Shown in pieces: positions 20,307 to 63,992 of a DNA stretch of 64,000 nt (position 1 is its first letter; every line of letters starts with the position of its first letter). The stretch is from a virus. The stretch covers positions 40,995 to 104,994 of IMG/VR virus record IMGVR_UViG_3300030060_004280. One strand, given 5' to 3'. A program made the position numbers and the translations under genes. The notes under the pieces are model-generated. The model was not told the origin of the DNA. It was given only the letters and a program-made list of their open reading frames with translations, and searched no databases.

Positions 20307-21506
20307 TCAAAGCCCCACAATCATATCAATTGGTTGGAATGTGACGCTACCCTCATAGATGTTATTTCCTGCGTCATATCCAAAGTTCATTCCTACAACA
20401 GTTCCGCGAATACCTGTGAACTTGTCAGTAACATTGAAATCTGTTCCGAACTCATTGTAATTTCCAATACTGCTTTGCTCTTCGATAGAGCGCGCACCGG
20501 ACACGATTAATAAGTTGCGTGTGACATATCCATCATTTGAAGTAACATTGTTTGTTTTTTGGACGAGAGAATTGTAAGGGATTTGAATACCGACAATGTA
20601 ATCACCGGAACGGTCAGCAATAGAAAATGATGTATCAAGGCCATGTTCATCACTTTCGTTATCCAACCCAACATCAATAAGCGCGCCCGACACACCGGCA
20701 AGATTCGCATTACCTATCGCCGCGATAAGGTCTTGAAGTTTATCACCCGCGCTTTTACAATTATGCAATGTTCCACCACCAAACAATTCAAACTTGGGTT
20801 TAGCGAGAGTGCCACCATCACTCCAAAAATTAGGAGTAGCGTTGTTTCCATCCGGCCCTAATTCGACTGATGTTATTGTAAGTTTTGAACTGCCCGTCGA
20901 TGCGATAGAACCTACACCTACTGATATTGATAGCGCGTTTAGTATTGTATCACTTGTTGAACCTGTGCTTGTTAACTGAACATTGAATGATTGATTTTGA
21001 TTAAAAGCGGCAACTACTCTTGCCGCAAGTTGCGCGCCCGTTGTTACAGATTGAATACCGACTGTCAATATGGGTGACCCTGTGGCATATGTATGACTTG
21101 TTGTATCTTTATCAAACTTAATTGTAATAGGAGCGCGAACTCGACTTTTGTTTGTGTATGCTGTTGCAAGTTCAAATGTTTTATTGTCTAAATTAGCAAC
21201 GGTTATAGCGCCACCGTCACCGTCCATAAAGAAGTCATTACCTCCACCCGATGCATCAGCGCTTAGGCCAAAATCAATAGTGCAGAAAGCCGCATCTTGT
21301 TGAAATGATGTTGCCGAGCAATCATCATCTCTCAATATACAGTCGATTTGAATATCACATTGAACCGTATTTATGTCAATGGCTAACCTTTCTGCAAGAA
21401 TAGGAATAGGTATTACCGGAACTGAACGAGATACGCTTAGCGTGTATGATGTAGCGTCAAGTTCAATCACTTGGTCGTCTTGTCTAATGAGTCTAATTCT
21501 TGACAT
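20307..21506 (-). CDS. Putative distal tail protein with inserted domain
   Basis: Immediately follows the tape measure gene. N- and C-terminal beta segments (IELDATSYTLSV...; GIRGTVVGMNFGYDAGNNIYEGSVTF) flank a Thr/Gly-rich insertion. Confidence 0.5.
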   Translation of the reverse strand: MSRIRLIRQDDQVIELDATSYTLSVSRSVPVIPIPILAERLAIDINTVQCDIQIDCILRDDDCSATSFQQDAAFCTIDFGLSADASGGGNDFFMDGDGGAITVANLDNKTFELATAYTNKSRVRAPITIKFDKDTTSHTYATGSPILTVGIQSVTTGAQLAARVVAAFNQNQSFNVQLTSTGSTSDTILNALSISVGVGSIASTGSSKLTITSVELGPDGNNATPNFWSDGGTLAKPKFELFGGGTLHNCKSAGDKLQDLIAAIGNANLAGVSGALIDVGLDNESDEHGLDTSFSIADRSGDYIVGIQIPYNSLVQKTNNVTSNDGYVTRNLLIVSGARSIEEQSSIGNYNEFGTDFNVTDKFTGIRGTVVGMNFGYDAGNNIYEGSVTFQPIDMIVGL

Positions 21507-23269
21507 TACAACGCACCTCTCCTGTTACCATATCCTCTTCCGCTACGATTCATTTCTTCACGGATGGCTTCACCGATTTCGCGAGCAAGAGCGCGTTTAT
21601 CGGTTCTGTCTGTAACGCCACCAACATTAACATTTATTGTTATTGGTCCTCCGCCCAATCCTAAACCTATACCCTGCGGATTGTTTTTCTTAGTTAGCGG
21701 TATAACAGCCTCCGGCCCATCCTCACCGATTAGCGCGTTCGTGGGTTTGTCAACTATACCACCTTTCGCTAATTTCACTTTAGGTATTTTTGGTAGTCCA
21801 AACTTCTTACCACCAATCTTCGGAACCCACTTAGGAATCTTGATTTTCATTTTCTTAGCGAGCCAATTATAACCTTTTATGAATACATTGACTACACCTT
21901 CGGCAGACTTCTTGGCTACCCTAATTATACGACTCGGCACACCAACAAGCCATGCTAATATTCCTTTCCAACCACCACTTAATGCGACTGTAAAAGAAAT
22001 GTATAAGTCCATGAGAACATCATAAACAACTTTGAAAGGGGTTATGAGTATAATTGCTATTGTTGCTACAATACCGTATATTACTGCAATAACTACTGAA
22101 ATTGCTCCTAAGATTACTGCAACAATACCTGCTAAAATAGCAACAAACCACTCACCAATAAAGACTAATCCCGCCCATATTGCTTCTCCTATGGCTATAC
22201 CTATCGCTTTTACTTCGTCCCAATATTTGATAACAAGAGCAACTATAAAAATTACAAGCGCGGTTATTGCAACTGCGGGCCATGCTATAACACCAAGAAT
22301 TGCTAAACCAACTGCAATTGCCGCCGCACTTATTGCACCAACAAGCCATCCTAACCATCCGTCAATCTTACCTGTAATAAAAGCCCAAAGACCAACAATA
22401 CCACCGATAACAAGACCAATACCAAGTAAAAATGTTCCAATTAGGAAAGTCCAACTGTTCGCCATCGCCGCCGCCGTCACACCACCTGCGGCAATTACCG
22501 CTTTCAATGTCAAAAATAAACCGATAAGAACTGCCGCCGTAGCCGCCGCCGCCGCAAATGCGGCAGTTGTGCTACCTGTTTCTTTCTTAACAAGTTGAAA
22601 TGCTCCCGCTACAAGAATTAAACTTCCCGAAATTAAAGCGGCTTTAGCGCCAAACAAAAACCAAATAGGTAATGCTACTATTAGCGCGGCTGTAACAATG
22701 TTCAACGCACCATAGAAACCGCCTTCGCCTTCACCCGTCATTGCTAAGATTAACCCCTGCAACGCTTGGTCTGCCCCCCACACTCCATCTGTGTATGAAA
22801 GTAAAGGACTTTCAGCACCACTAAACGCAATTGATACTGCGGCAATAGCAAATGCAACAAGTAAGAATATCGAAAGAATACCGAATACACTCATAGTTAA
22901 TCTTCGCCATAGTGATACTCCGTTCTTTACCATCTTGTTTTGCATTTTACCATAAGCGGTAGCGGTCACCATTGTCGCCATTAATTTAGTTAATCCTGTT
23001 GCGTTTTTCTCATATTCTGCTCTTTGCTCATCTGTTAAGTTTGTCGCTTGTGTCTGCAATACATGGAATGTTTTGAGTTGTTTTCCAACACCCAAAATTG
23101 ATTTTCCAAATTGAACTATTGGATTCTTTTTGAAAGCCGCTTGTAACTTACTTTGTTGCTTTTCTAAAATACCTGCGGTTTTACCATACGCGTTTCCGAT
23201 GACACCCAACTCTTGTAGCGATGTTTTCAAATCAGCAAAGTCTTTTGCGAGTGCTTGAACATCGGACAT
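21506..23269 (-). CDS. Tape measure protein
   Basis: 587 aa: helical N-terminus, long Ala/Gly/Ile hydrophobic stretch, and the typical TMP C-terminal motif LAKGGIV...ALIGEDGPEAVIPL. Follows the chaperone pair. Confidence 0.85.
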   Translation of the reverse strand: MSDVQALAKDFADLKTSLQELGVIGNAYGKTAGILEKQQSKLQAAFKKNPIVQFGKSILGVGKQLKTFHVLQTQATNLTDEQRAEYEKNATGLTKLMATMVTATAYGKMQNKMVKNGVSLWRRLTMSVFGILSIFLLVAFAIAAVSIAFSGAESPLLSYTDGVWGADQALQGLILAMTGEGEGGFYGALNIVTAALIVALPIWFLFGAKAALISGSLILVAGAFQLVKKETGSTTAAFAAAAATAAVLIGLFLTLKAVIAAGGVTAAAMANSWTFLIGTFLLGIGLVIGGIVGLWAFITGKIDGWLGWLVGAISAAAIAVGLAILGVIAWPAVAITALVIFIVALVIKYWDEVKAIGIAIGEAIWAGLVFIGEWFVAILAGIVAVILGAISVVIAVIYGIVATIAIILITPFKVVYDVLMDLYISFTVALSGGWKGILAWLVGVPSRIIRVAKKSAEGVVNVFIKGYNWLAKKMKIKIPKWVPKIGGKKFGLPKIPKVKLAKGGIVDKPTNALIGEDGPEAVIPLTKKNNPQGIGLGLGGGPITINVNVGGVTDRTDKRALAREIGEAIREEMNRSGRGYGNRRGAL

Positions 23270-40701: not shown

Positions 40702-41043
40702 TCAATAATAGTCTGTTGCGCCTGTAAATGCACTTGGAGGACTCTTATCCGGGTCACCACCCGCTACATTCTCATGTGCTGATAGCGCATCATCGTGAGA
40801 TGAATGTTGCTTTTCGTCTAAATTAACTTCTTCTTTCTTTGGGTCTGTGCGCTTTACATCTTCAACTTCAATAGTTTGATTATTGGTATGATAATATCCC
40901 GGCTTTACTTTCTCGACACCGCGAACACTCTCAAACCCTGTTGCGTTTTTAGACCCAAACTTGCCTTCAACGGCTTTTGCTTCTTTCAATAGCGCTTCTA
41001 AATCCGGTGCGTGTTGCCCTGCTTCGACTTTCATTGGTTTCAT
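40702..41043 (-). CDS. Hypothetical head-module protein
   Basis: 113 aa, hydrophilic, ATGA overlap with the upstream gene, GGAGG RBS. Confidence 0.6.
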   Translation of the reverse strand: MKPMKVEAGQHAPDLEALLKEAKAVEGKFGSKNATGFESVRGVEKVKPGYYHTNNQTIEVEDVKRTDPKKEEVNLDEKQHSSHDDALSAHENVAGGDPDKSPPSAFTGATDYY

Positions 41044-48541: not shown

Positions 48542-50328
48542 GACGCTTTGATAATGTCAACCACATCGCGCCCTACTTGAAAATGTTCCGCTACTTTCGA
48601 CCAATCTCCAATACTCATAGCAATAGCGCGAACATCTGTTGATTCAAGGTCAAGTTGTTTCGCTAAAACTATCATATGGTTTCGATTATGAGGATTTAGA
48701 TTAGTATATTGAACGCTTTTCATTATTTGCGCGTTTTCCCATGTGTCGTGCATTTGCACTCTTTCCATAACTGCGGCGATAGCGCCCATCGGGTCGTCAA
48801 AAGAAGTCATAAAATTATCATCTTGTTGATTACGCATTGTTGTCGTCCCTTCGGGCGCAAATGGGTCATTCGCTGATGGACCCGCGCCAAGATTAGGGTC
48901 ATTCAAAGGTGGACCACCACCTACACCTGCGGGTGGTAATTGTTGATTTTCCATCATTGGGTCATAATCTCCTACACTAATATGGTCGGGTAATTGGTCG
49001 TGAAGGTGTCCTAACTCATCTGTTATTCTGCCATGCATTTCATGATGCTCTTGAGCAATACCCATGTTCATCAAATCAACAGGTCTGCCTCCTTGTTGTA
49101 TAGCGAATGATTTCCAACCGCTAATAACTGATGCCGGAGGTTTTGAAATACCAAGCGCGGGTGTAATATCAACCCCTAACTCTTCTGCTGTTTTGAGAGT
49201 AGCCAATATTCTCTTCGCCGCGTCTGTTCTGCCTCTATCAGCACCACCAATTCTCCCGTCAAAGTGACTTCTATGCTTATGATACATGTCCGCTATGGTG
49301 TTATCTTTGTTTTGACCGTCTATACCAATGTATGTCTGTATTCGATTGACGATATTATTGAGTTGAGTGGCTGAACCCTTTTTGCCTCGACCCATAATTA
49401 ACTGTGCGGCGGGTGCGCGAGCCATTGCTTCTGCTCTTCGCGCTGATACACCTTCTCTAACTAACGCATTTATCACTTGTAGCGGTGGCCTACCCTTTGA
49501 AGTAGGAACAAAAAACGCATCCGGTAAAGATGCGATAATATCAGCAGGTCTTATCTGCCCGTATTGGGTTTTTTCATTATATTTTTCCGAGCCATATTCG
49601 GGAAAATGGTGATTATCTTTACTTGTTGGGTCTTTCATGTTACTGCTGTATCTTTCAAGAAGGCTTCTCATTCTGTATGAACCATCAGCCATCTTTTCGG
49701 GTGCGCGAACTATATGTTGAGGCTCAAGAACATTTTGCCTCGCTCCTAAATCGCTTTCAACGCCTAACGCTTGTATAATTTTACGGAACTCTTTTTCAAA
49801 ATGGAACGCTCCCGACTCAAGGAAACGACCGAGAGTGTTATGTCTAACGCTATTATAGTGCAAATTGATGAGTTGACCCTTTGAATCTCGCGTTTTTCTT
49901 GCAGAAGTTGGAACATTTCGTGCTTCGTGTTGCCCGTAATGATTACTTTTGTATTCGGGATGCAAATTACCGTTCTCATCAAAGGGAATTGGCACAGTAT
50001 GAAAGTTATCACCTTCGTTTCTTTTAGTCCTGTTGAAGTCGATAGCGGCTTTATTCATGATTTCTTTAGCCTTTTGTAGCGCTAAATTACCCGGAAACAT
50101 TTGCCTTAACTTTTTATTTTCTGCAAGATACCTTGCCGCCGCCTCCATAGGCCAATGACGCATGTTATCGGGTATCTCTTTGTGCGGTTTCCCTGTTGAA
50201 TGGTCTATATGAAAATGTGACATTTCTTTATGCGGTGAACTCGGATGAGGAAATGACATTGGAATCAATTTACCTCCTGCTCCGCGCTTATACACACCTT
50301 TTCCCTTGATGATATTATCATTCATCAT
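48520..50328 (-). CDS. Hypothetical 602-aa protein, possible C-terminal HTH
   Basis: Long ORF coupled to both neighbours; His-rich; C-terminus DWSKVAEHFQVGRDVVDIIK. Confidence 0.65.
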   Translation of the reverse strand: MMNDNIIKGKGVYKRGAGGKLIPMSFPHPSSPHKEMSHFHIDHSTGKPHKEIPDNMRHWPMEAAARYLAENKKLRQMFPGNLALQKAKEIMNKAAIDFNRTKRNEGDNFHTVPIPFDENGNLHPEYKSNHYGQHEARNVPTSARKTRDSKGQLINLHYNSVRHNTLGRFLESGAFHFEKEFRKIIQALGVESDLGARQNVLEPQHIVRAPEKMADGSYRMRSLLERYSSNMKDPTSKDNHHFPEYGSEKYNEKTQYGQIRPADIIASLPDAFFVPTSKGRPPLQVINALVREGVSARRAEAMARAPAAQLIMGRGKKGSATQLNNIVNRIQTYIGIDGQNKDNTIADMYHKHRSHFDGRIGGADRGRTDAAKRILATLKTAEELGVDITPALGISKPPASVISGWKSFAIQQGGRPVDLMNMGIAQEHHEMHGRITDELGHLHDQLPDHISVGDYDPMMENQQLPPAGVGGGPPLNDPNLGAGPSANDPFAPEGTTTMRNQQDDNFMTSFDDPMGAIAAVMERVQMHDTWENAQIMKSVQYTNLNPHNRNHMIVLAKQLDLESTDVRAIAMSIGDWSKVAEHFQVGRDVVDIIKASCLEALT

Positions 50329-51527
50329 GATATTCCGCCCCTTCTAACATACAACCCATAAGCATGCGCGCCCCACATTGTAGGGTCATCTTCGGGGTCT
50401 GCTTCTGTTGCACCTGTTGGCGCAGAAGTCATGCGGCGATGAGCGTTAGGTGTCGGTCCATCCGGTGCAGGGTCAAGCGATGCATCCGCTTTTCGCGTTA
50501 AACCTCTCAATAACTTCTCAAGTTTTTGAATTAGACGACGATATTCTTGTTTATCTCGCATCGTCATACCTTTAGCAAGTAGCGCGGCGAAAGGTGATGA
50601 ACCACCCATCGCTAAGTCAGTAGCCTTTGAGTGTTCTGCACCCATTGGAGTGTCGGGTTTTCTCGGCGTGTGTGTTTTCTTTGGTCCTTTAGTCGCGTCC
50701 CTGTGTTCAGCCGTTCCTCTTGGTGCATGAGCAATTCGCGATTCGGGCAATTCTGTTGGAATTGAAGGAGTAACAGGTTGAGTTGGCATAGAACCCGATA
50801 TTTCTGCTCTTCTTGCTTCGGATTCGCGAGCGCGGGGTGAACTCATCATAGCGGGAGGACCCGAACGCATAGATGCTGTTGTAAGATAATTGGGAGTGGT
50901 GCGAGTTTGCCTACTGTATTGCATTGAAGGTTGAGTAGCCCTATGTGATGCGATAACTCCGGTATATTTACCCGGATTACGACCTGTATCAACTCTTAGA
51001 GGGTTACCTGCTTTGCGTTTGCGGGTCTTTTTCTTAGAATCTATTGTTTTAGTTTTCTCTTTACGACTCTTACGACCCTTTTCAGCGCGCTGTCTTGCGC
51101 GAACTGTGTCTATTGTAGTAGTTTTCTTAGGCTTTTCCCTGTCGTATTTTGGCGCGTCTTTTTTTTTAATTACATCAAAAGCCAAATCCATAGGTTCGCC
51201 GGTCATAACACCCATACCTAACCCATTACCTTGTGGATTAGCGCCCGGAACAACCTCGCTTTGCCCCACTTGACCCATTTGACCGGCTTCTTCTTGAAGT
51301 CGCTCTTCATCTTCTTTGTTTTGCTGTGGTATTTTGATTTTCAAATGCTGAATACCTTGCAATAATCGAGCGCGTTTCTCTTGCTCATTCTGTTTTTTAG
51401 CGTTATGCTTGGCGCGCTCTTCGGAATCTTCACGCCCTACCGAAGAATCTTCTTCGATTTCTTCTGCGCTTTGGCGTGGATTGAACCGCAAATTACCTGC
51501 GCTACCCGAACCATCTCCCATCGGCAT
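50325..51527 (-). CDS. Disordered basic protein with internal PMDLAFDVIK motif
   Basis: 400 aa; acidic N-terminal part, then a Lys/Arg-rich part that begins right after EPMDLAFDVIKK. Confidence 0.65.
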   Translation of the reverse strand: MPMGDGSGSAGNLRFNPRQSAEEIEEDSSVGREDSEERAKHNAKKQNEQEKRARLLQGIQHLKIKIPQQNKEDEERLQEEAGQMGQVGQSEVVPGANPQGNGLGMGVMTGEPMDLAFDVIKKKDAPKYDREKPKKTTTIDTVRARQRAEKGRKSRKEKTKTIDSKKKTRKRKAGNPLRVDTGRNPGKYTGVIASHRATQPSMQYSRQTRTTPNYLTTASMRSGPPAMMSSPRARESEARRAEISGSMPTQPVTPSIPTELPESRIAHAPRGTAEHRDATKGPKKTHTPRKPDTPMGAEHSKATDLAMGGSSPFAALLAKGMTMRDKQEYRRLIQKLEKLLRGLTRKADASLDPAPDGPTPNAHRRMTSAPTGATEADPEDDPTMWGAHAYGLYVRRGGIS

Positions 51528-51961
51528 TAGTCATCACCATCACACAATGATTCAAAAGTCCTTTGGAGAACACTCGCTATATTGTAATAAAATAAACACA
51601 CTTCTTCATTCTCCTTAAACACACCTGCATATGCGCTAAAAATAGTATGTATCGCTAACATCATATGCGCTAATATGGATTTAGCGTGTATGAACTTCTC
51701 TCCATCATCAACAGTCATAATTTTGAATTGTGTTTCCACATCTCGCACTATACCTCTATGAGTATGATACTCGGCGTATATATGTGGAGCCATGTTACTA
51801 ACTGCATGATGCCAACGGTCTATAACGACATTAATTAATTTGAAAAATCTATCATATTCATCGACTGTCAATGCGCGATTTGCTTGCAACAAGTCGCTAT
51901 CGTCAATATCTTGACATTGGATGAACGGAACAAATACAGTAGCCTCACTCATTACCTTCAC
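51527..51961 (-). CDS. Hypothetical helical protein
   Basis: 144 aa, coupled to neighbours; probable start MSEATV. Confidence 0.6.
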   Translation of the reverse strand: MKVMSEATVFVPFIQCQDIDDSDLLQANRALTVDEYDRFFKLINVVIDRWHHAVSNMAPHIYAEYHTHRGIVRDVETQFKIMTVDDGEKFIHAKSILAHMMLAIHTIFSAYAGVFKENEEVCLFYYNIASVLQRTFESLCDGDD

Positions 51962-52616
51962 CCATCAATTTACCCCTTAATTTTCGCCAAACTTCGGGAG
52001 ATTCTTTGGCTAACTCAACTTTGAGAATGTTGATTGTCTGCGCGTTGATATTTTCTGTCACATTACCTGCGGCTCGGTCTTGTATTTTTATCATCATGTT
52101 GACGGTATCACGAACTTCTTTGTGTAACGATACAATATTACGCACATATTGAGGGTCATTACGGTCTGCATCGTCGAGAAAATGCGCTAACTCACCATTT
52201 AATCGAGCAAGATTACCGCGTATGGAGTTCATTTCATCACCGGCTTCGATAGCGATTATATCAGCCGCGCCTTTTTGCACGATAGGTTTGAGATGATGTT
52301 TCAAATGATGATATGCGCTTGATTCGGGCATTCCTATATCTTGCGCTATTTCTTCTGTCGTCATTGAGCCATTGTAATATGCGTGTTCAAGAGATTCGCG
52401 TTTAACTGATGTGCAAAACTTACATTCGCTGTTAGAACCCATATGATATTCGCCCATATGGTTACGAAAATGGCGGTCTGCTGTGCCTTCTCGCCAACCT
52501 TTGTCTTTATCCAATTGTTTAGCGTCGATGAAACCATCTTTCATCAATTGCTCTAAACTATCTCGTTCTTCATCTTGACAAAACGGACAAGATGCTCGCG
52601 TTACTCTCTCGCCCAC
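51945..52616 (-). CDS. Putative terminase small subunit-like protein (tandem CxxC-HTH-HxxxH repeats plus coiled coil)
   Basis: CPFC...RHFRNH and CKFC...TTEEIAQDIGMPESSAYHHLKHH, then an oligomerisation-type coiled coil. Upstream of TerL. Confidence 0.5.
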   Translation of the reverse strand: MGERVTRASCPFCQDEERDSLEQLMKDGFIDAKQLDKDKGWREGTADRHFRNHMGEYHMGSNSECKFCTSVKRESLEHAYYNGSMTTEEIAQDIGMPESSAYHHLKHHLKPIVQKGAADIIAIEAGDEMNSIRGNLARLNGELAHFLDDADRNDPQYVRNIVSLHKEVRDTVNMMIKIQDRAAGNVTENINAQTINILKVELAKESPEVWRKLRGKLMGEGNE

Positions 52617-52667: not shown

Positions 52668-52970
52668 ATGAGAACTCCTACAAAAACCCCACGAATAGCA
52701 GGAATACCATTGAATAAAAGTTCCGCTATCAGCCTCGGAAAAGGAGTTATGGATTCTTTATTAAATCGCAAAGTCGATACAGCAGAAAGAGATAGAAGAT
52801 TGAAGATATGTCACTCTTGTGAACACTTTAGCGCACCAAGATGCACATTATGTGGCTGTTTTATGAACTTCAAAACAACGCTATCGTCAAGCAATTGCCC
52901 TGTTAACAAATGGTTACCCGTTGGAGAACTTGCGATAGACCAATCCGGTAAAACTGAAAAGAGCGAATAA
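52668..52970 (+). CDS. Cys-rich Zn-binding protein (DUF6171-like); only plus-strand gene
   Basis: RDRRLKICHSCEHF...CTLCGCFMNFKT....SNCPVNKW. Probable start MRTPTK at 52668. Confidence 0.7.
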   Translation: MRTPTKTPRIAGIPLNKSSAISLGKGVMDSLLNRKVDTAERDRRLKICHSCEHFSAPRCTLCGCFMNFKTTLSSSNCPVNKWLPVGELAIDQSGKTEKSE

Positions 52971-53156
52971 CACTACAAGCAAGTAGGATAGGTTAGTTGA
53001 ACTCATACTGTTGCTATTGAAAGCAATAATCATAAAACATCCAAGTGTTAAACTGATTAATTGAACCATAATCATGTCAACAATGACTGATTTGCGCATA
53101 TTGCTAAAATCACTAATAGCGGTGAATAAACCACCCGTCCAATCTCCACCTTGCAT
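52914..53156 (-). CDS. Small two-TM membrane protein
   Basis: VIVDMIMVQLISLTLGCFMIIAF and LSYLLVVLFALFSFTGLVY, followed by basic RK. Confidence 0.7.
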   Translation of the reverse strand: MQGGDWTGGLFTAISDFSNMRKSVIVDMIMVQLISLTLGCFMIIAFNSNSMSSTNLSYLLVVLFALFSFTGLVYRKFSNG

Positions 53157-53157
53157 C

Positions 53158-53739
53158 TTAACGACCTCCTGTTGCTAATCCACGCACTAACGAACCAAGA
53201 CCGCCACCGACGCTTTGCATCATGCCGGGGTCAGCGATAGCCTCATTCAACATATTTTGCATCATACTTTGATTTGCAAGTTGAACCATTTGTTGAAACT
53301 GCATAGTTTTTTGTTGAACATTGTTTGATGACGCGTTAAGGATTTGAGTTTGCGCCATTGTTACGCTATCAGCCGTTGGCATACCTGTAACTGCGCTAAA
53401 ATCAAACTTATACCCATCCCCATCTTCGACTAAGCGCGCATTAGCGAGCATAGTATTGACTGATACCGCTACAAGACTACTTAACAATGAAATAAGCATA
53501 TTCATATTTGCACCATTGTTATCGGATAACCACTTGTCAATCAACGGGTTAGATGTTATCATTGCGGATAGAATCTCCATTTCGGATGGCGGCGCTTGAT
53601 ATTGCAATCCGTATGGCTGTTGTTGCCCCCATTGTTGCTGTCCTTGCGCCGGAACTTGTTGTTGACCCCCTGCTAAGCCGAGATTCAACGCGCCTTGCTG
53701 TTGTTGTTGCTGATTGTTACCATTAAACGGCCATACCAT
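53158..53739 (-). CDS. Gln/Gly-rich protein with a hydrophobic helix
   Basis: Poly-Q N-terminus, MLISLLSSLVAVSV segment, amphipathic C-terminus GLGSLVRGL; GAGGTGG RBS. Confidence 0.7.
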   Translation of the reverse strand: MVWPFNGNNQQQQQQGALNLGLAGGQQQVPAQGQQQWGQQQPYGLQYQAPPSEMEILSAMITSNPLIDKWLSDNNGANMNMLISLLSSLVAVSVNTMLANARLVEDGDGYKFDFSAVTGMPTADSVTMAQTQILNASSNNVQQKTMQFQQMVQLANQSMMQNMLNEAIADPGMMQSVGGGLGSLVRGLATGGR

Positions 53740-53748
53740 GATACCACC

Positions 53749-54642
53749 TCACGCGCTCCCATCATTTGATTCTGTCGGTAAAGGCATTGGTTGTGCTTGA
53801 ACGGCTTGTTGTTGCATTTGGTGCATCGCTAACGCGTCAAACAAAAGGCGAGTGTTGCCATTATTTTGGAATTGACGCATATCGAACATCACAATTACCA
53901 AATCGTTAATCCCCGTAGCGGTATTTGTCATATGCGTAACAGGAATATTGTCTTTTTTAAGCATTTCAAAGAACGGTTGGTATTTAGCGAGTGTTGGAGG
54001 CGTGTTATCCTTCTTTTTGATGGTGCTAATAGGAACAGCCACCACAGAAACCCCCTTCTTGAGTTTGGCTTTGAGTGTTCCACTCTTTGCTTCTTGCTCG
54101 GCTTCTTCTTCTTTTTCCCATTTTGTAAGCATATGATAGAGATGCAAGTGTTCGGGACAATATGTTCCGCGCATCTTGCGCCCACTTGTGACATTTTCAC
54201 GCGCTACAAAGGCTTCGGGTTCTCCGGTTACCGGATTATGGAAATACAACTCCCATAGCGACTTACCTGTTTCCTCATCTAAGATTTGGTCGTAAATATT
54301 ACCCGCTAAACGGATAAGATTCTCAACATCCGCCCCATCAATAACACATCGCATAGTATTGGTGTTGTATCGGTATTTTCCCCCGAAAAACCACCTTCTT
54401 GGCGAAAAAATACTTCTTTTCGTCGGTTTTAACAGTTTATACGCCTGTTTTATGTCTTGACGGCGCGCTTTTGTTGGATTCGGGTGTCTTGAAGGGTAAA
54501 AATTGACTTGAGGCACTTCAATTACACCCGCTTGCTCTTGCATAGCGGCTTGAACCATCGCCTGTTGCTGTATTTGCGCCAATGGCATATTCGTTTGTGC
54601 GGCAAGCCTCAATAAGTCTGTCTGTGATTGTTTTCCAAGCAT
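53749..54642 (-). CDS. Gln-rich-ended protein with possible metal-binding motif
   Basis: Q/A/M-rich ends; RCVID...YCPEHLH; GGTGA RBS. Confidence 0.7.
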   Translation of the reverse strand: MLGKQSQTDLLRLAAQTNMPLAQIQQQAMVQAAMQEQAGVIEVPQVNFYPSRHPNPTKARRQDIKQAYKLLKPTKRSIFSPRRWFFGGKYRYNTNTMRCVIDGADVENLIRLAGNIYDQILDEETGKSLWELYFHNPVTGEPEAFVARENVTSGRKMRGTYCPEHLHLYHMLTKWEKEEEAEQEAKSGTLKAKLKKGVSVVAVPISTIKKKDNTPPTLAKYQPFFEMLKKDNIPVTHMTNTATGINDLVIVMFDMRQFQNNGNTRLLFDALAMHQMQQQAVQAQPMPLPTESNDGSA

Positions 54643-54646
54643 TTTT

Positions 54647-55369
54647 TCACCAACTTAACATTTCCAATAGTGTTTTCTCCACATTCCATCCTATATTTGT
54701 AGCCATCATAGATACGCGGCAAGGAATACCCGCTTTTTGTAATCTGCGCATAGCAGGTCTATGCACATCGAAGACTTTGTGTTCGCGAAGTCGATTAGAT
54801 TGCCAAAGTATGTTTGCATTGTCATCCCACCATTCATCAGCCTTGTTTGCTATAATCCATACTTGTTTGGGGGAGTAGCGCTTACCTTTGAGTCTTGTTT
54901 TCAATCTTCTATATTTCCATCGCTTTTCTATCAATGCATCAACAAGGAACTCTAATCCACCCACCACATCAATGACTTGACTCCCATTACCTTTCAAGGC
55001 GCGTGTGTCAGTCATAAAGACTACTATTTCGACTTGTCTATCCACCATATCATCAATCCATAGGTTCCAAAAGCGCTGTTGGCCTCCAATATCCGCCGAA
55101 TGAACAACTCTTTTCTCCCCTTTCCATCGAATACGCTTTCTTGTGGCGCGCGGAAGCACATGTCCTCCTTTTAGCAATCTTTTCGGATGCATAGTGCGCT
55201 CTTCGATAGCCTCCATCTCTCCGGGTGTTTTCATAAACGCGTCAAGTGTAGTCTTACCGACTAATGTTGGTCCATACACGCCAATTCTGCGCGGTTTGAG
55301 AAAATTATACAATTCGCGACCATAAACGACCGCACCCATAAGTGCGCTACCCGCCATTGTCGCAACCAT
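54647..55369 (-). CDS. Arf-like small GTPase with N-terminal hydrophobic/amphipathic helix
   Basis: G1 GPTLVGKTT, G2 ERT, G3 DIGGQQRFWNLW, IVVFMTD, G4 IANKAD, G5-like MATNIGWNVE. Probable start MVATMAG at 55369. Confidence 0.85.
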   Translation of the reverse strand: MVATMAGSALMGAVVYGRELYNFLKPRRIGVYGPTLVGKTTLDAFMKTPGEMEAIEERTMHPKRLLKGGHVLPRATRKRIRWKGEKRVVHSADIGGQQRFWNLWIDDMVDRQVEIVVFMTDTRALKGNGSQVIDVVGGLEFLVDALIEKRWKYRRLKTRLKGKRYSPKQVWIIANKADEWWDDNANILWQSNRLREHKVFDVHRPAMRRLQKAGIPCRVSMMATNIGWNVEKTLLEMLSW

Positions 55370-55370
55370 T

Positions 55371-55607
55371 TCAAGAAACCCACCCAATGACTTTATTTTT
55401 AGCCCATTCGACAGTATTTTCCCAAACGCTAACATCTGTGCCGTATTCAAACCAAGATACACCTAAACCTGTTCCGATTGCGAGTAAAATAGCAAAGAGC
55501 AAACCTTTTCCGCGCTCATAATAAGTATCGAGAGTATTTTGAGTGTGCAAAGCGCGTAAGGTTGCCTCCGTAGCATCATCGCTTGGGGTTTTGAACAACC
55601 AACCCAT
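55371..55607 (-). CDS. Small single-TM membrane protein
   Basis: Start MGWLFK after GGAGTGA. TM segment GLLFAILLAIGTGLGVSWF. Confidence 0.7.
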   Translation of the reverse strand: MGWLFKTPSDDATEATLRALHTQNTLDTYYERGKGLLFAILLAIGTGLGVSWFEYGTDVSVWENTVEWAKNKVIGWVS

Positions 55608-55612
55608 AACTT

Positions 55613-56149
55613 TCACTCCTTCTTCGACTTTTTGTAAGTGCCATCAGCGTTTCGTGGCTTGTTAGCGCCTAATTTCATTGGCTTTTTGTTATTCGCTTCG
55701 TGATTTGGCGCGTTCATAGCCTCTTCTGCCGCTTCTTGCATTTCCTGTTGTAAAGCCAAGTATTGAACTACTTCGGGGTCCTCTTCAAGTTGTTGTAACT
55801 GATGTGAGAAAAGCATTTCTTGTTTCTTTAGTTCAATTTCCATTTGTTTTTGCGCAAATCCCATCTGTTGCTTTTGCATTTGTCGCGTCATACTCTTCTG
55901 CATGTTAGCGAGGCTTGCTTTTTGGTCCATTGAGTCTTGCGCAAGCATTTTCCAAAGGAAATAACCCATACCTTGTAGCGTGAACGCTCCCATAGTGTAA
56001 GTTAGTCCATTTGTTTGCGTCGAATCGTCTTTTAGCCATAGCCCTGCATCGAAAACTGCGACGGCACATCCTACTAAAACTGACACAAATGATATGAGTC
56101 CGAGTATTCTTAATTCATCCGTATTGCGTGGCGCTTGTGCGGGTTGCAT
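55613..56149 (-). CDS. Two-TM membrane protein with cytoplasmic Gln-rich coiled coil
   Basis: ILGLISFVSVLVGCAVAVF and LTYTMGAFTLQGMGYFLW, then a Q/M/E heptad region and basic tail; GAGGG RBS. Confidence 0.75.
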   Translation of the reverse strand: MQPAQAPRNTDELRILGLISFVSVLVGCAVAVFDAGLWLKDDSTQTNGLTYTMGAFTLQGMGYFLWKMLAQDSMDQKASLANMQKSMTRQMQKQQMGFAQKQMEIELKKQEMLFSHQLQQLEEDPEVVQYLALQQEMQEAAEEAMNAPNHEANNKKPMKLGANKPRNADGTYKKSKKE

Positions 56150-56185
56150 GTATGTTCCCTCTAATGCATGGTGTAGTGTGCATCA

Positions 56186-56195
56186 AATAAAGGTA
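56186..56195 (-). promoter_or_regulatory. Putative promoter TACCTTTATT for the GTPase/membrane operon
   Basis: Variant of the TACCTT motif in the intergenic gap, 36 nt before ATG 56149, leaving room for a short leader with the GAGGG RBS. Confidence 0.45.
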
Positions 56196-63604: not shown

Positions 63605-63709
63605 ACGGTCGTGGGGCAAAACGGTGTAGGAGAAGCGCGCCTCAAATATTTTTTATTTGAGATTTTTTTTTCTGTATTTCGCATGGGGTTAAGCAGGGCA
63701 AAAGTGCGC

Positions 63710-63992
63710 TCCGCTATGCGCTACTCCGGCGGCGCTATACGCTATAAGGCAAATGTCGCTATCGCTATCCGCTATGGCGCTATCGCTATCGTGGCGCTAT
63801 CTAAGTTTCATTAGCGCACATAAGGCACTTTCATAAGGCGCTATTAGTAGCGTAGCGTAGCCTTGCAGTATAGCGCTTTTGTGCAATAGCGTAGCGGGGT
63901 CGGCTGTTGTTGGCTCTTCATATCGCCATAGCGTAGCGCCGACCATATGGTTGGTATGCGCTATTTGTTGTCCGTTCTCCGCAAATAGCGCA
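63710..63992. repeat. CGCTA/TAGCG short-repeat cluster in non-coding DNA
   Basis: By hand count, about 12 CGCTA (mostly in the left part) and 9 TAGCG (mostly in the right part) in ~290 bp, next to a T-rich tract at ~63648-63680. Confidence 0.85.

Follow-up and report, generated by a model that had tools for sequence, protein, structure and literature searches.

What does an Arf-like small GTPase do in a head-tailed virus of archaea, encoded among genes for small membrane proteins and glutamine-rich proteins? This question is raised by a 64,000-nucleotide (nt) stretch of virus DNA (hereafter the window; positions 40,995 to 104,994 of IMG/VR record IMGVR_UViG_3300030060_004280), which carries six consecutive genes that we call g1 to g6. 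An earlier reading of this DNA from its letters alone (the sequence-only reading) had proposed that the six genes constitute a new system for egress, lysis or membrane remodelling. By its gene content, described below, the virus is a magrovirus-type archaeal tailed virus (Magrovirales) with Marine Group II, an abundant group of archaea in the ocean, as its host group. The features of the encoded proteins suggest that the cassette probably acts on the host membrane, and release of progeny virions late in infection is the role that we tentatively favour for it.

The product of g3 has both the motifs and the predicted fold of a small GTPase of the Ras superfamily (P-loop, TRAFAC class). The motifs are GPTLVGKTT for G1, R-T-x-H as a candidate G2, DIGGQ for G3, NKAD for G4 and M-A-T for G5, and they are conserved in canonical order in 17 diverse members of the family as GxxxVGKTT, R-T-x-H, D-x-G-G-Q/H, N-K-x-D and S/M-A-T/K. 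Gln stands at the catalytic position of G3, with His instead in a second clade of relatives (clade 2, described below). Judged by these motifs, the GTPase is catalytically intact. An AlphaFold model of g3, with a predicted local distance difference test score (pLDDT) of 85 and a predicted template modelling score (pTM) of 0.83, has the expected alpha/beta fold and matches Rab, Ras, Rho and Arf proteins in Foldseek with a probability of 1.0. When the g3 family profile was compared with the PDB, Asgard ArfR (8oun) came first (E 4e-6), followed by Arl8 (~1e-4); the nearest structural neighbours are of the Arf/Arl/Sar/SR-beta kind rather than Rab, Ras or Rho. Motifs, profile matches and fold thus agree with the earlier description of g3 as an Arf-like GTPase. 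Pfam Arf is the commonest match among g3 relatives (8 of 17, best E 0.005), yet always below threshold, and for this reason we call g3 Arf-like and not Arf in the Pfam sense: on these profile comparisons it is a new and very divergent family. A phmmer search of 1.84 billion representatives returned 70 g3 relatives, all of this same family and all on marine viral-type contigs. Likewise, a profile search returned 468 clusters, from marine metagenomes throughout, a few of which carry the automatic JGI label 'GTPase SAR1 family protein'. The divergent GTPases P0048, P0007 and P0042 have no match in IMG/VR.

Relatives of g3 begin at the same ATG, whereas a longer GTG open reading frame (ORF) from 55462 would overlap g2. 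With 240 amino acids (aa), g3 exceeds the ~180 aa of Arf family members (Arl8, Arf1, Arf6, Arl1 and Sar1; ArfR, PDB 8OUN/8OUM/8OUK; SR-beta) because of three insertions relative to Arf, one of which is strongly basic. None of its partners in the cassette resembles a known guanine nucleotide exchange factor, GTPase-activating protein or coat protein. In the model, residues 2-24 form an N-terminal helix that is hydrophobic to amphipathic and rich in small and hydrophobic residues. Its calculated hydrophobic moment of 0.25-0.54, compared with 0.27 for residues 2-17 of Arf1, is that of an Arf-type amphipathic helix in silico. Residue 2 is Val, Ser or Ala, so that there is no Gly2 for N-myristoylation. 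The modelled helix is a probable membrane-binding element. In a structure search of BFVD, the matches to g3 are confined to Rab, Ran and Ras of giant viruses of eukaryotes (Nucleocytoviricota). These are also virus-encoded small GTPases, but they are close copies of host eukaryotic proteins, whereas g3 is Arf-like, extremely divergent and placed in a dedicated operon of a head-tailed archaeal virus.

The sequence-only reading had named conservation of the six-gene neighbourhood across magroviruses as a check on its proposal, and we ran this check in two samples. The first was anchored on the GTPase, with 136 relatives in IMG/VR from which 80 loci were kept. The second was drawn independently through the terminase gene TerL (71-97% identity) and comprised 20 loci with at least 9.3 kilobases (kb) upstream. 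In the 80 GTPase-anchored loci, g1 to g5 and g7 (the next minus-strand gene beyond g6) are collinear wherever the locus extends to them, and g6 was found in 79. All six genes are present in 20 of 20 TerL-anchored loci, with order and distance unchanged. Ratios of nonsynonymous to synonymous substitution rates (dN/dS) against the nearest relatives are 0.03-0.15 for all six genes (0.03-0.08 for g1 and 0.035-0.1 for g2), indicating purifying selection, and g3 is the best-conserved gene of the cassette (56-94% identity). These comparisons confirm the cassette genes as real, well beyond chance.

The cassette also occurs in clade 2, a set of marine contigs of up to 135 kb whose GTPase is 39% identical to g3. 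There, hidden Markov models (HMMs) find, in order, matches to g1 (E ~1e-14), g2 (~1e-6), g3 (~1e-60) and g4 (~1e-47). After g4 comes a glutamine-rich protein whose middle domain matches that of g5 in a profile-profile comparison (probability 81%, E 1.2e-5, 107 columns). The reading frames of g1 to g5 overlap or nearly touch, in the same order, in both clades. In clade 2 the cassette follows a chaperonin (Cpn60/thermosome) gene and lies among chaperonin and nuclease genes; no g7 homologue was found in this clade, and no homologue of the other window proteins was found in its cassette flanks. Given that g1 to g5 are kept in clade 2 amid a different neighbourhood, they represent, on this comparative evidence, an old, portable and self-contained module. 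No g6 homologue was found in clade 2 by HMM, and g6 is therefore regarded as a lineage-specific addition. Downstream of the clade-2 cassette lies a gene for a 665-808-aa protein that is C-terminally anchored in most loci. Further downstream are several small proteins, some with a hydrophobic tail, and a SWIB/MDM2-domain protein (L122, 3152-4705, and L117, 2820-4478, with their flanks). In L122, a Peptidase_G2 tailspike-chaperone domain is encoded upstream of the cassette.

The conservation across clades bears on the possibility that the adjacency is merely historical and that the GTPase is a soluble regulator of translation, chaperonin or replication, unrelated to its membrane neighbours. The weak, sub-threshold Pfam matches of the g3 family, which besides Arf include MMR_HSR1, Roc, EF-Tu and RagA, would suit such a protein, as would partners without known folds. 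We nevertheless consider this quite improbable, since the order and near-touching frames of g1 to g5 have been kept across two clades whose flanks share no other detectable homologues of window proteins, and the conserved hydrophobic N-terminal helix of g3 points to membrane binding.

In the window, the six ORFs were confirmed on the minus strand between 52914 and 56149, and the gaps from g1 to g6 are 5, 1, 4, 9 and 1 nt. The promoter element ACCTTTATTTGATG (Table 1) is followed by a GAGG-type ribosome-binding stretch before g1, and a T/A-rich box (CTTTATG, GCTTATG or similar) is located 35-50 nt ahead of the g1 start in 16 of 16 divergent loci that were inspected. Exact copies of the ACCTTTATTTGATG motif number two in the window, upstream of g1 and of g7; the motif shows no enrichment in the window, and with mismatches allowed its frequency is that expected by chance. 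A scan for sigma-70 promoters and terminators gave no useful signal, as is to be expected of an archaeal virus. At the other end, a plus-strand gene for a Cys-rich DUF6171 protein is convergent with g6, overlapping its 3' end by 57 nt, and divergent from g7, and g1 to g6 are therefore bounded as a transcription unit. The layout thus supports a single compact, promoter-led unit, as had been predicted from the short gaps and the promoter-like motif. The six genes, their order and their coordinates stood as first read, but the DUF6171 gene had been overlooked.

Table 1. Positions in the window of the cassette genes, their putative promoter and the plus-strand gene at the cassette boundary
Feature	Position	Strand	Remarks
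TATA-box-like promoter element ACCTTTATTTGATG	56181-56194	-	~40 nt before g1 ATG, inside the 137-nt gap upstream of g1
g1, 178-aa membrane protein	55613-56149	-	ORF, hydropathy, HMM
g2, 78-aa protein with a single transmembrane segment	55371-55607	-	conserved start at 55607 (M-G-W-L-F-K)
g3, 240-aa Arf-like small GTPase	54647-55369	-	ATG start at 55369, 1 nt after g2 stop
g4, 297-aa soluble orphan protein	53749-54642	-	conserved core between Q-rich ends
g5, 193-aa Gln-rich protein	53158-53739	-	15% Gln, poly-Q N-terminus
g6, 80-aa protein with two transmembrane segments and a short basic C-terminus (R-K-F-S-N-G)	52914-53156	-	hydropathy
DUF6171 (PF19668) Cys-rich gene, 73 aa	52749-52970	+	E 2e-9, 38 bits vs cut-off 27

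The three membrane proteins of the cassette, g1, g2 and g6, have no significant match in Pfam or PHROG. According to hydropathy, g1 has one strong transmembrane (TM) segment at about residues 12-40, a weaker, conserved second hydrophobic segment, and then a coiled-coil-like region rich in Q, M, E and K. It contains 12% Gln, an N-terminal E-L/I-R-x-L-G motif and a basic tail with P-x-x-L-G. The coiled coil predicted for g1 by the sequence-only reading is consistent with this layout, but of its two predicted TM segments only one is clear. For g2 and g6, hydropathy agrees with the one and two TM segments, respectively, that had been assigned to them. The N-terminal motif M-G-x-I/L-F-K-x-x-x-D-D-x-x-E of g2 is conserved, and g2 directly precedes the GTPase gene in every locus of both clades. 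The only small TM proteins of the late genome half are g1, g2 and g6; the other TM-rich protein occupies the tape-measure position. Small non-structural membrane proteins of viruses are typical exclusion factors, and a cassette with its own promoter that is portable between genome contexts could serve superinfection exclusion or host-surface takeover, in which the envelope or receptors are altered, later infections are blocked or transport or signalling is reprogrammed. Exclusion genes, however, are usually variable accessory genes, while all genomes sampled from the lineage carry this cassette, strongly conserved and with the GTPase identity given above, making such a role quite unlikely.

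The remaining two proteins, g4 and g5, are predicted to be soluble, and they have no significant Pfam or PHROG match and no usable match in the ESM Atlas. In g4, which contains 8% Gln, C99 and C162 show no variation and D102, H165 and H170 almost none in either clade, within the motifs C-x-x-D-G and Y-C-P-E/Q-H-x-x-L-Y/F-H. The C..D/C..H motif between Q-rich ends that was noticed at first sight is thus a conserved feature of the family, and because these five residues are conserved across both clades, the Cys/His core could possibly be a zinc site. The g4 family comprises 653 clusters, all marine metagenomic and none of them named. The g4 model (pLDDT 60) has no fold match, and nothing was found when the g4 profile was compared with the PDB. 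The g5 protein starts with a conserved segment (M-x-x-F-G ... L-N-L-G), continues with a middle domain that is helical and a helix rich in Q and M, and ends in a tail with the motif G-x-x-G-S-x-x-R. It is Gln-rich, as had been described, but the hydrophobic helix that accompanied this description is borderline in hydropathy and is not TM-like in clade 2.

A role in the virion was also considered, with the cassette proteins being virion-associated or ejected, for example as a membrane-spanning conduit for entry, and the GTPase taking part in assembly of the head or tail or in delivery of DNA. The cassette does lie within the long strand of structural genes, between the gene for a 2465-aa protein and the terminase region, and TM segments are frequent in the ejection proteins of tailed phages. 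On the other hand, none of the six proteins has the capsid-targeting tag of neighbouring head-cargo proteins such as g9, the clade-2 cassette is located outside the structural block, and a small GTPase was found in no other virus of bacteria or archaea, either in the BFVD structure search or by tblastn of phage and archaeal-virus records. We therefore regard a virion role as very unlikely, and tagged head cargo was rejected because all six proteins lack the tag. The g9 protein (400 aa, 50325-51527, minus strand) contains the peptide P-M-D-L-A-F-D-V-I-K at residue 112, which is absent from g1 to g6.

All of the long ORFs of the window are on the minus strand, and the genes for terminase, portal, prohead protease, HK97-type capsid and tail tube are among them. 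The capsid protein matches solely archaeal tailed viruses, namely Haloarcula HVTV-1 and HCTV-1/5 at 32-33% identity together with viruses of methanogen lineages. Collinear, near-complete relatives of 103 and 118 kb have genes for PolB (B-family polymerase) and Cpn60/thermosome. The window and its relatives thus combine an HK97-type structural module nearest to haloarchaeal tailed viruses with the ~100-kb genome, PolB and chaperonin published as the magrovirus pattern (PMC5434244). The top cultured matches of TerL are Bacteroides phages at 26% identity, which raised the possibility of a bacterial host. We did not take these matches as host evidence, and a bacterial host was rejected because the capsid protein matches archaeal viruses only and the relatives have PolB and chaperonin. 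One locus, L126 (contig NZMJ01000140.1), has g1 to g7 all on an 8.8-kb contig that is binned in a 'Maricaulis sp.' bacterial metagenome-assembled genome; this is most likely a mis-binned viral contig and no sign of a bacterial host.

Among cellular systems, the closest in description to the cassette is ArvA-ArvB-ArvC (OapABC) of Haloferax volcanii and other Euryarchaeota. ArvA is an Arf-like GTPase that, together with two small partners including a Zn-ribbon protein, produces extracellular vesicles in Euryarchaeota (PMC10927574). As in the cassette, the gene for an Arf-like GTPase bearing an amphipathic helix at its N-terminus directly precedes genes for small partners, and one partner is Cys-rich in each system. 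In contrast to ArvABC, the cassette is virus-encoded and adds two or three integral membrane proteins as well as Gln-rich proteins. Neither DUF2073 (ArvB) nor DUF2072 (ArvC) was detected in g1, g2 or g4 to g6 (Pfam, E<=1), so that the cassette does not group with ArvABC by its partner domains. The weak Arf and MMR_HSR1 matches that the g3 family shares with ArvA (PMC10927574) are only suggestive, with ArvA having been compared by its description. Some clade-2 loci carry an ORF for a zinc ribbon of 50-53 aa (CxxC...CxxC) between g1 and g2 (L103, 5622-5774; L122, 5605-5766), and its likeness to the Zn-ribbon partner ArvC is in name only.

The likeness to ArvABC nonetheless makes it conceivable that the cassette directs non-lytic vesiculation or builds internal membrane platforms, the vesicles or membrane patches serving as decoys, in receptor shedding, or as scaffolds in replication or assembly, without the cell being opened. 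An Arf-like GTPase with an N-terminal membrane helix, the conserved Cys/His cluster of g4 and, in clade 2, a chaperonin gene beside the cassette and many tail-anchored membrane proteins encoded after it are all compatible with an ArvA-like process. Against these stand the lack of DUF2073 and DUF2072 in any cassette protein and the lack of a known membrane requirement in the assembly of tailed viruses, and on balance we consider this explanation unlikely.

Virion release, the role that we tentatively favour, draws on a comparison with the holin-based lysis cassettes of tailed phages. Like g1 to g6, these are clusters that include genes for small membrane proteins. In lambdoid phages, the lysis genes lie upstream of the terminase and head genes, and the cassette occupies the same position in the window's lineage. 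The two TM segments and short basic C-terminus of g6 follow the class II holin layout, a likeness in topology only, without homology to any holin family. Unlike holin cassettes, this one has no cell-wall enzyme nearby, and its terminase-adjacent position is not conserved in clade 2. The argument from a late, structural position, as made by the sequence-only reading, therefore holds in the window's lineage but not in clade 2, where the cassette is away from head and terminase genes. We know of no described lysis cassette of which a GTPase is part.

Within the cassette, no endolysin, holin or spanin family was recognised in Pfam or PHROG, and there is no known holin family with an adjacent wall-degrading enzyme. 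We also inventoried Pfam and PHROG families across the remainder of the window and in the early half of a near-complete relative, G001. Among the top 25 families listed, only structural, replication, repair and chaperonin families appear and no endolysin or holin, in keeping with the earlier statement that the late region lacks a recognisable endolysin or known holin. This includes the early half of G001, where a conventional lysis cassette would have told against the proposal. In published work, the holins of archaeal tailed viruses remain unidentified (PMC10791045), and a 2025 paper proposes holins solely for a different order of Poseidoniales viruses (PMC11706807). Exploitation of the host GTPase ArvA by viruses appears in reviews only as speculation (PMC10791045, PMC10927574). 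The searchable literature contains no description of the cassette, and the consulted papers on magroviruses and archaeal viruses link no GTPase to these viruses.

We favour virion release because no other release genes are visible, because g6 is holin-like and because helix insertion of the Arf type can bend and cut membranes. Assembly on the membrane, control by GTP and an output in membrane remodelling are what we infer for the cassette products. In a possible mechanism, the products of g1 to g6 would assemble at the cytoplasmic side of the host membrane into a complex switched by GTP, with g1 and g2 as anchors or receptors. In its GTP state, g3 would bury its hydrophobic-amphipathic N-terminal helix in the bilayer in the manner of Arf, Sar1 and archaeal ArvA, and would then recruit or release g4 and g5, which may serve as effector, regulator or scaffold. 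The outcome would be local membrane bending, vesiculation or rupture. In the lineage of the window (clade 1), g6 might act as a holin-like pore former, with g3 as its gate or timer. Taken as a whole, the proposal of an archaeal head-tailed virus release system, in which a GTPase switch, membrane receptors and self-associating Gln-rich partners time and execute rupture or budding, is a doubtful one as it stands.

Several findings weigh against virion release and, in part, against the Arf-like assignment behind it. In clade 2, the chaperonin and nuclease genes around the cassette give no hint of a late or lysis position, and g6, the sole holin-like piece, is missing from that clade. Because g4 and g5 have no recognisable fold, naming them effector or regulator is a guess. 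HVTV-1 and its relatives, the haloarchaeal tailed viruses nearest by capsid, lyse their hosts, yet tblastn with g3 detected no counterpart in 50,697 records of phages and archaeal viruses, and the 30 kb of HVTV-1 around its terminase contained no hit to the cassette HMMs. In addition, g3 itself has no Pfam match at E<=1 and no significant PHROG match, and it does not reach the threshold of PF00025 (Arf).

If virion release is nevertheless correct, the cassette would represent a principle of lysis or egress without a bacteriophage counterpart. In the surface ocean, magroviruses rank among the most abundant viruses of archaea. Since the GTPase belongs to the core genes of the lineage and is accompanied by membrane partners of its own, the cassette offers a concrete candidate, amenable to cloning, for a membrane process that a virus drives in Euryarchaeota, and it adds a viral branch to the Arf-like GTPases, such as Asgard ArfR and ArvA, that remodel archaeal membranes. 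Even without a role in egress, five orphan protein families tied to a GTPase switch would be a tractable new system.

The genes next to the cassette are also conserved. The DUF6171 gene, one of very few plus-strand genes of the window, keeps its place and strand in 77 of the 80 loci. Its dN/dS is mostly 0.16-0.22, reaching 0.6 against the most distant locus, which indicates purifying selection. The g7 gene (51945-52616, minus strand) encodes a 223-aa protein with two CxxC pairs, a helix-turn-helix and a coiled coil, and a box like the g1 promoter is located upstream of it at 52708-52721. It is collinear with the cassette in 80 of 80 loci, was not found in the searched part of HVTV-1, and is a candidate small terminase subunit or late regulator.

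Two further observations concern more distant parts of the window. A 587-aa protein with about eight hydrophobic segments is encoded at 21506-23269 (minus strand), in the tape-measure position directly behind the tail-chaperone genes. A match to a PHROG tape-measure family was recorded for one protein of the window, although the batch scan did not identify which one. Upstream of the gene for the 2465-aa protein, at 63700-63970, 11 TAGCG repeats are found within ~130 nt of the minus strand, with inverted CGCTA copies further upstream and two GCCTTATG TATA-like boxes accompanying the cluster. TAGCG is ~2.8-fold over-represented on the minus strand overall, and the cluster resembles an array of operators or promoters close to the end of the genome.

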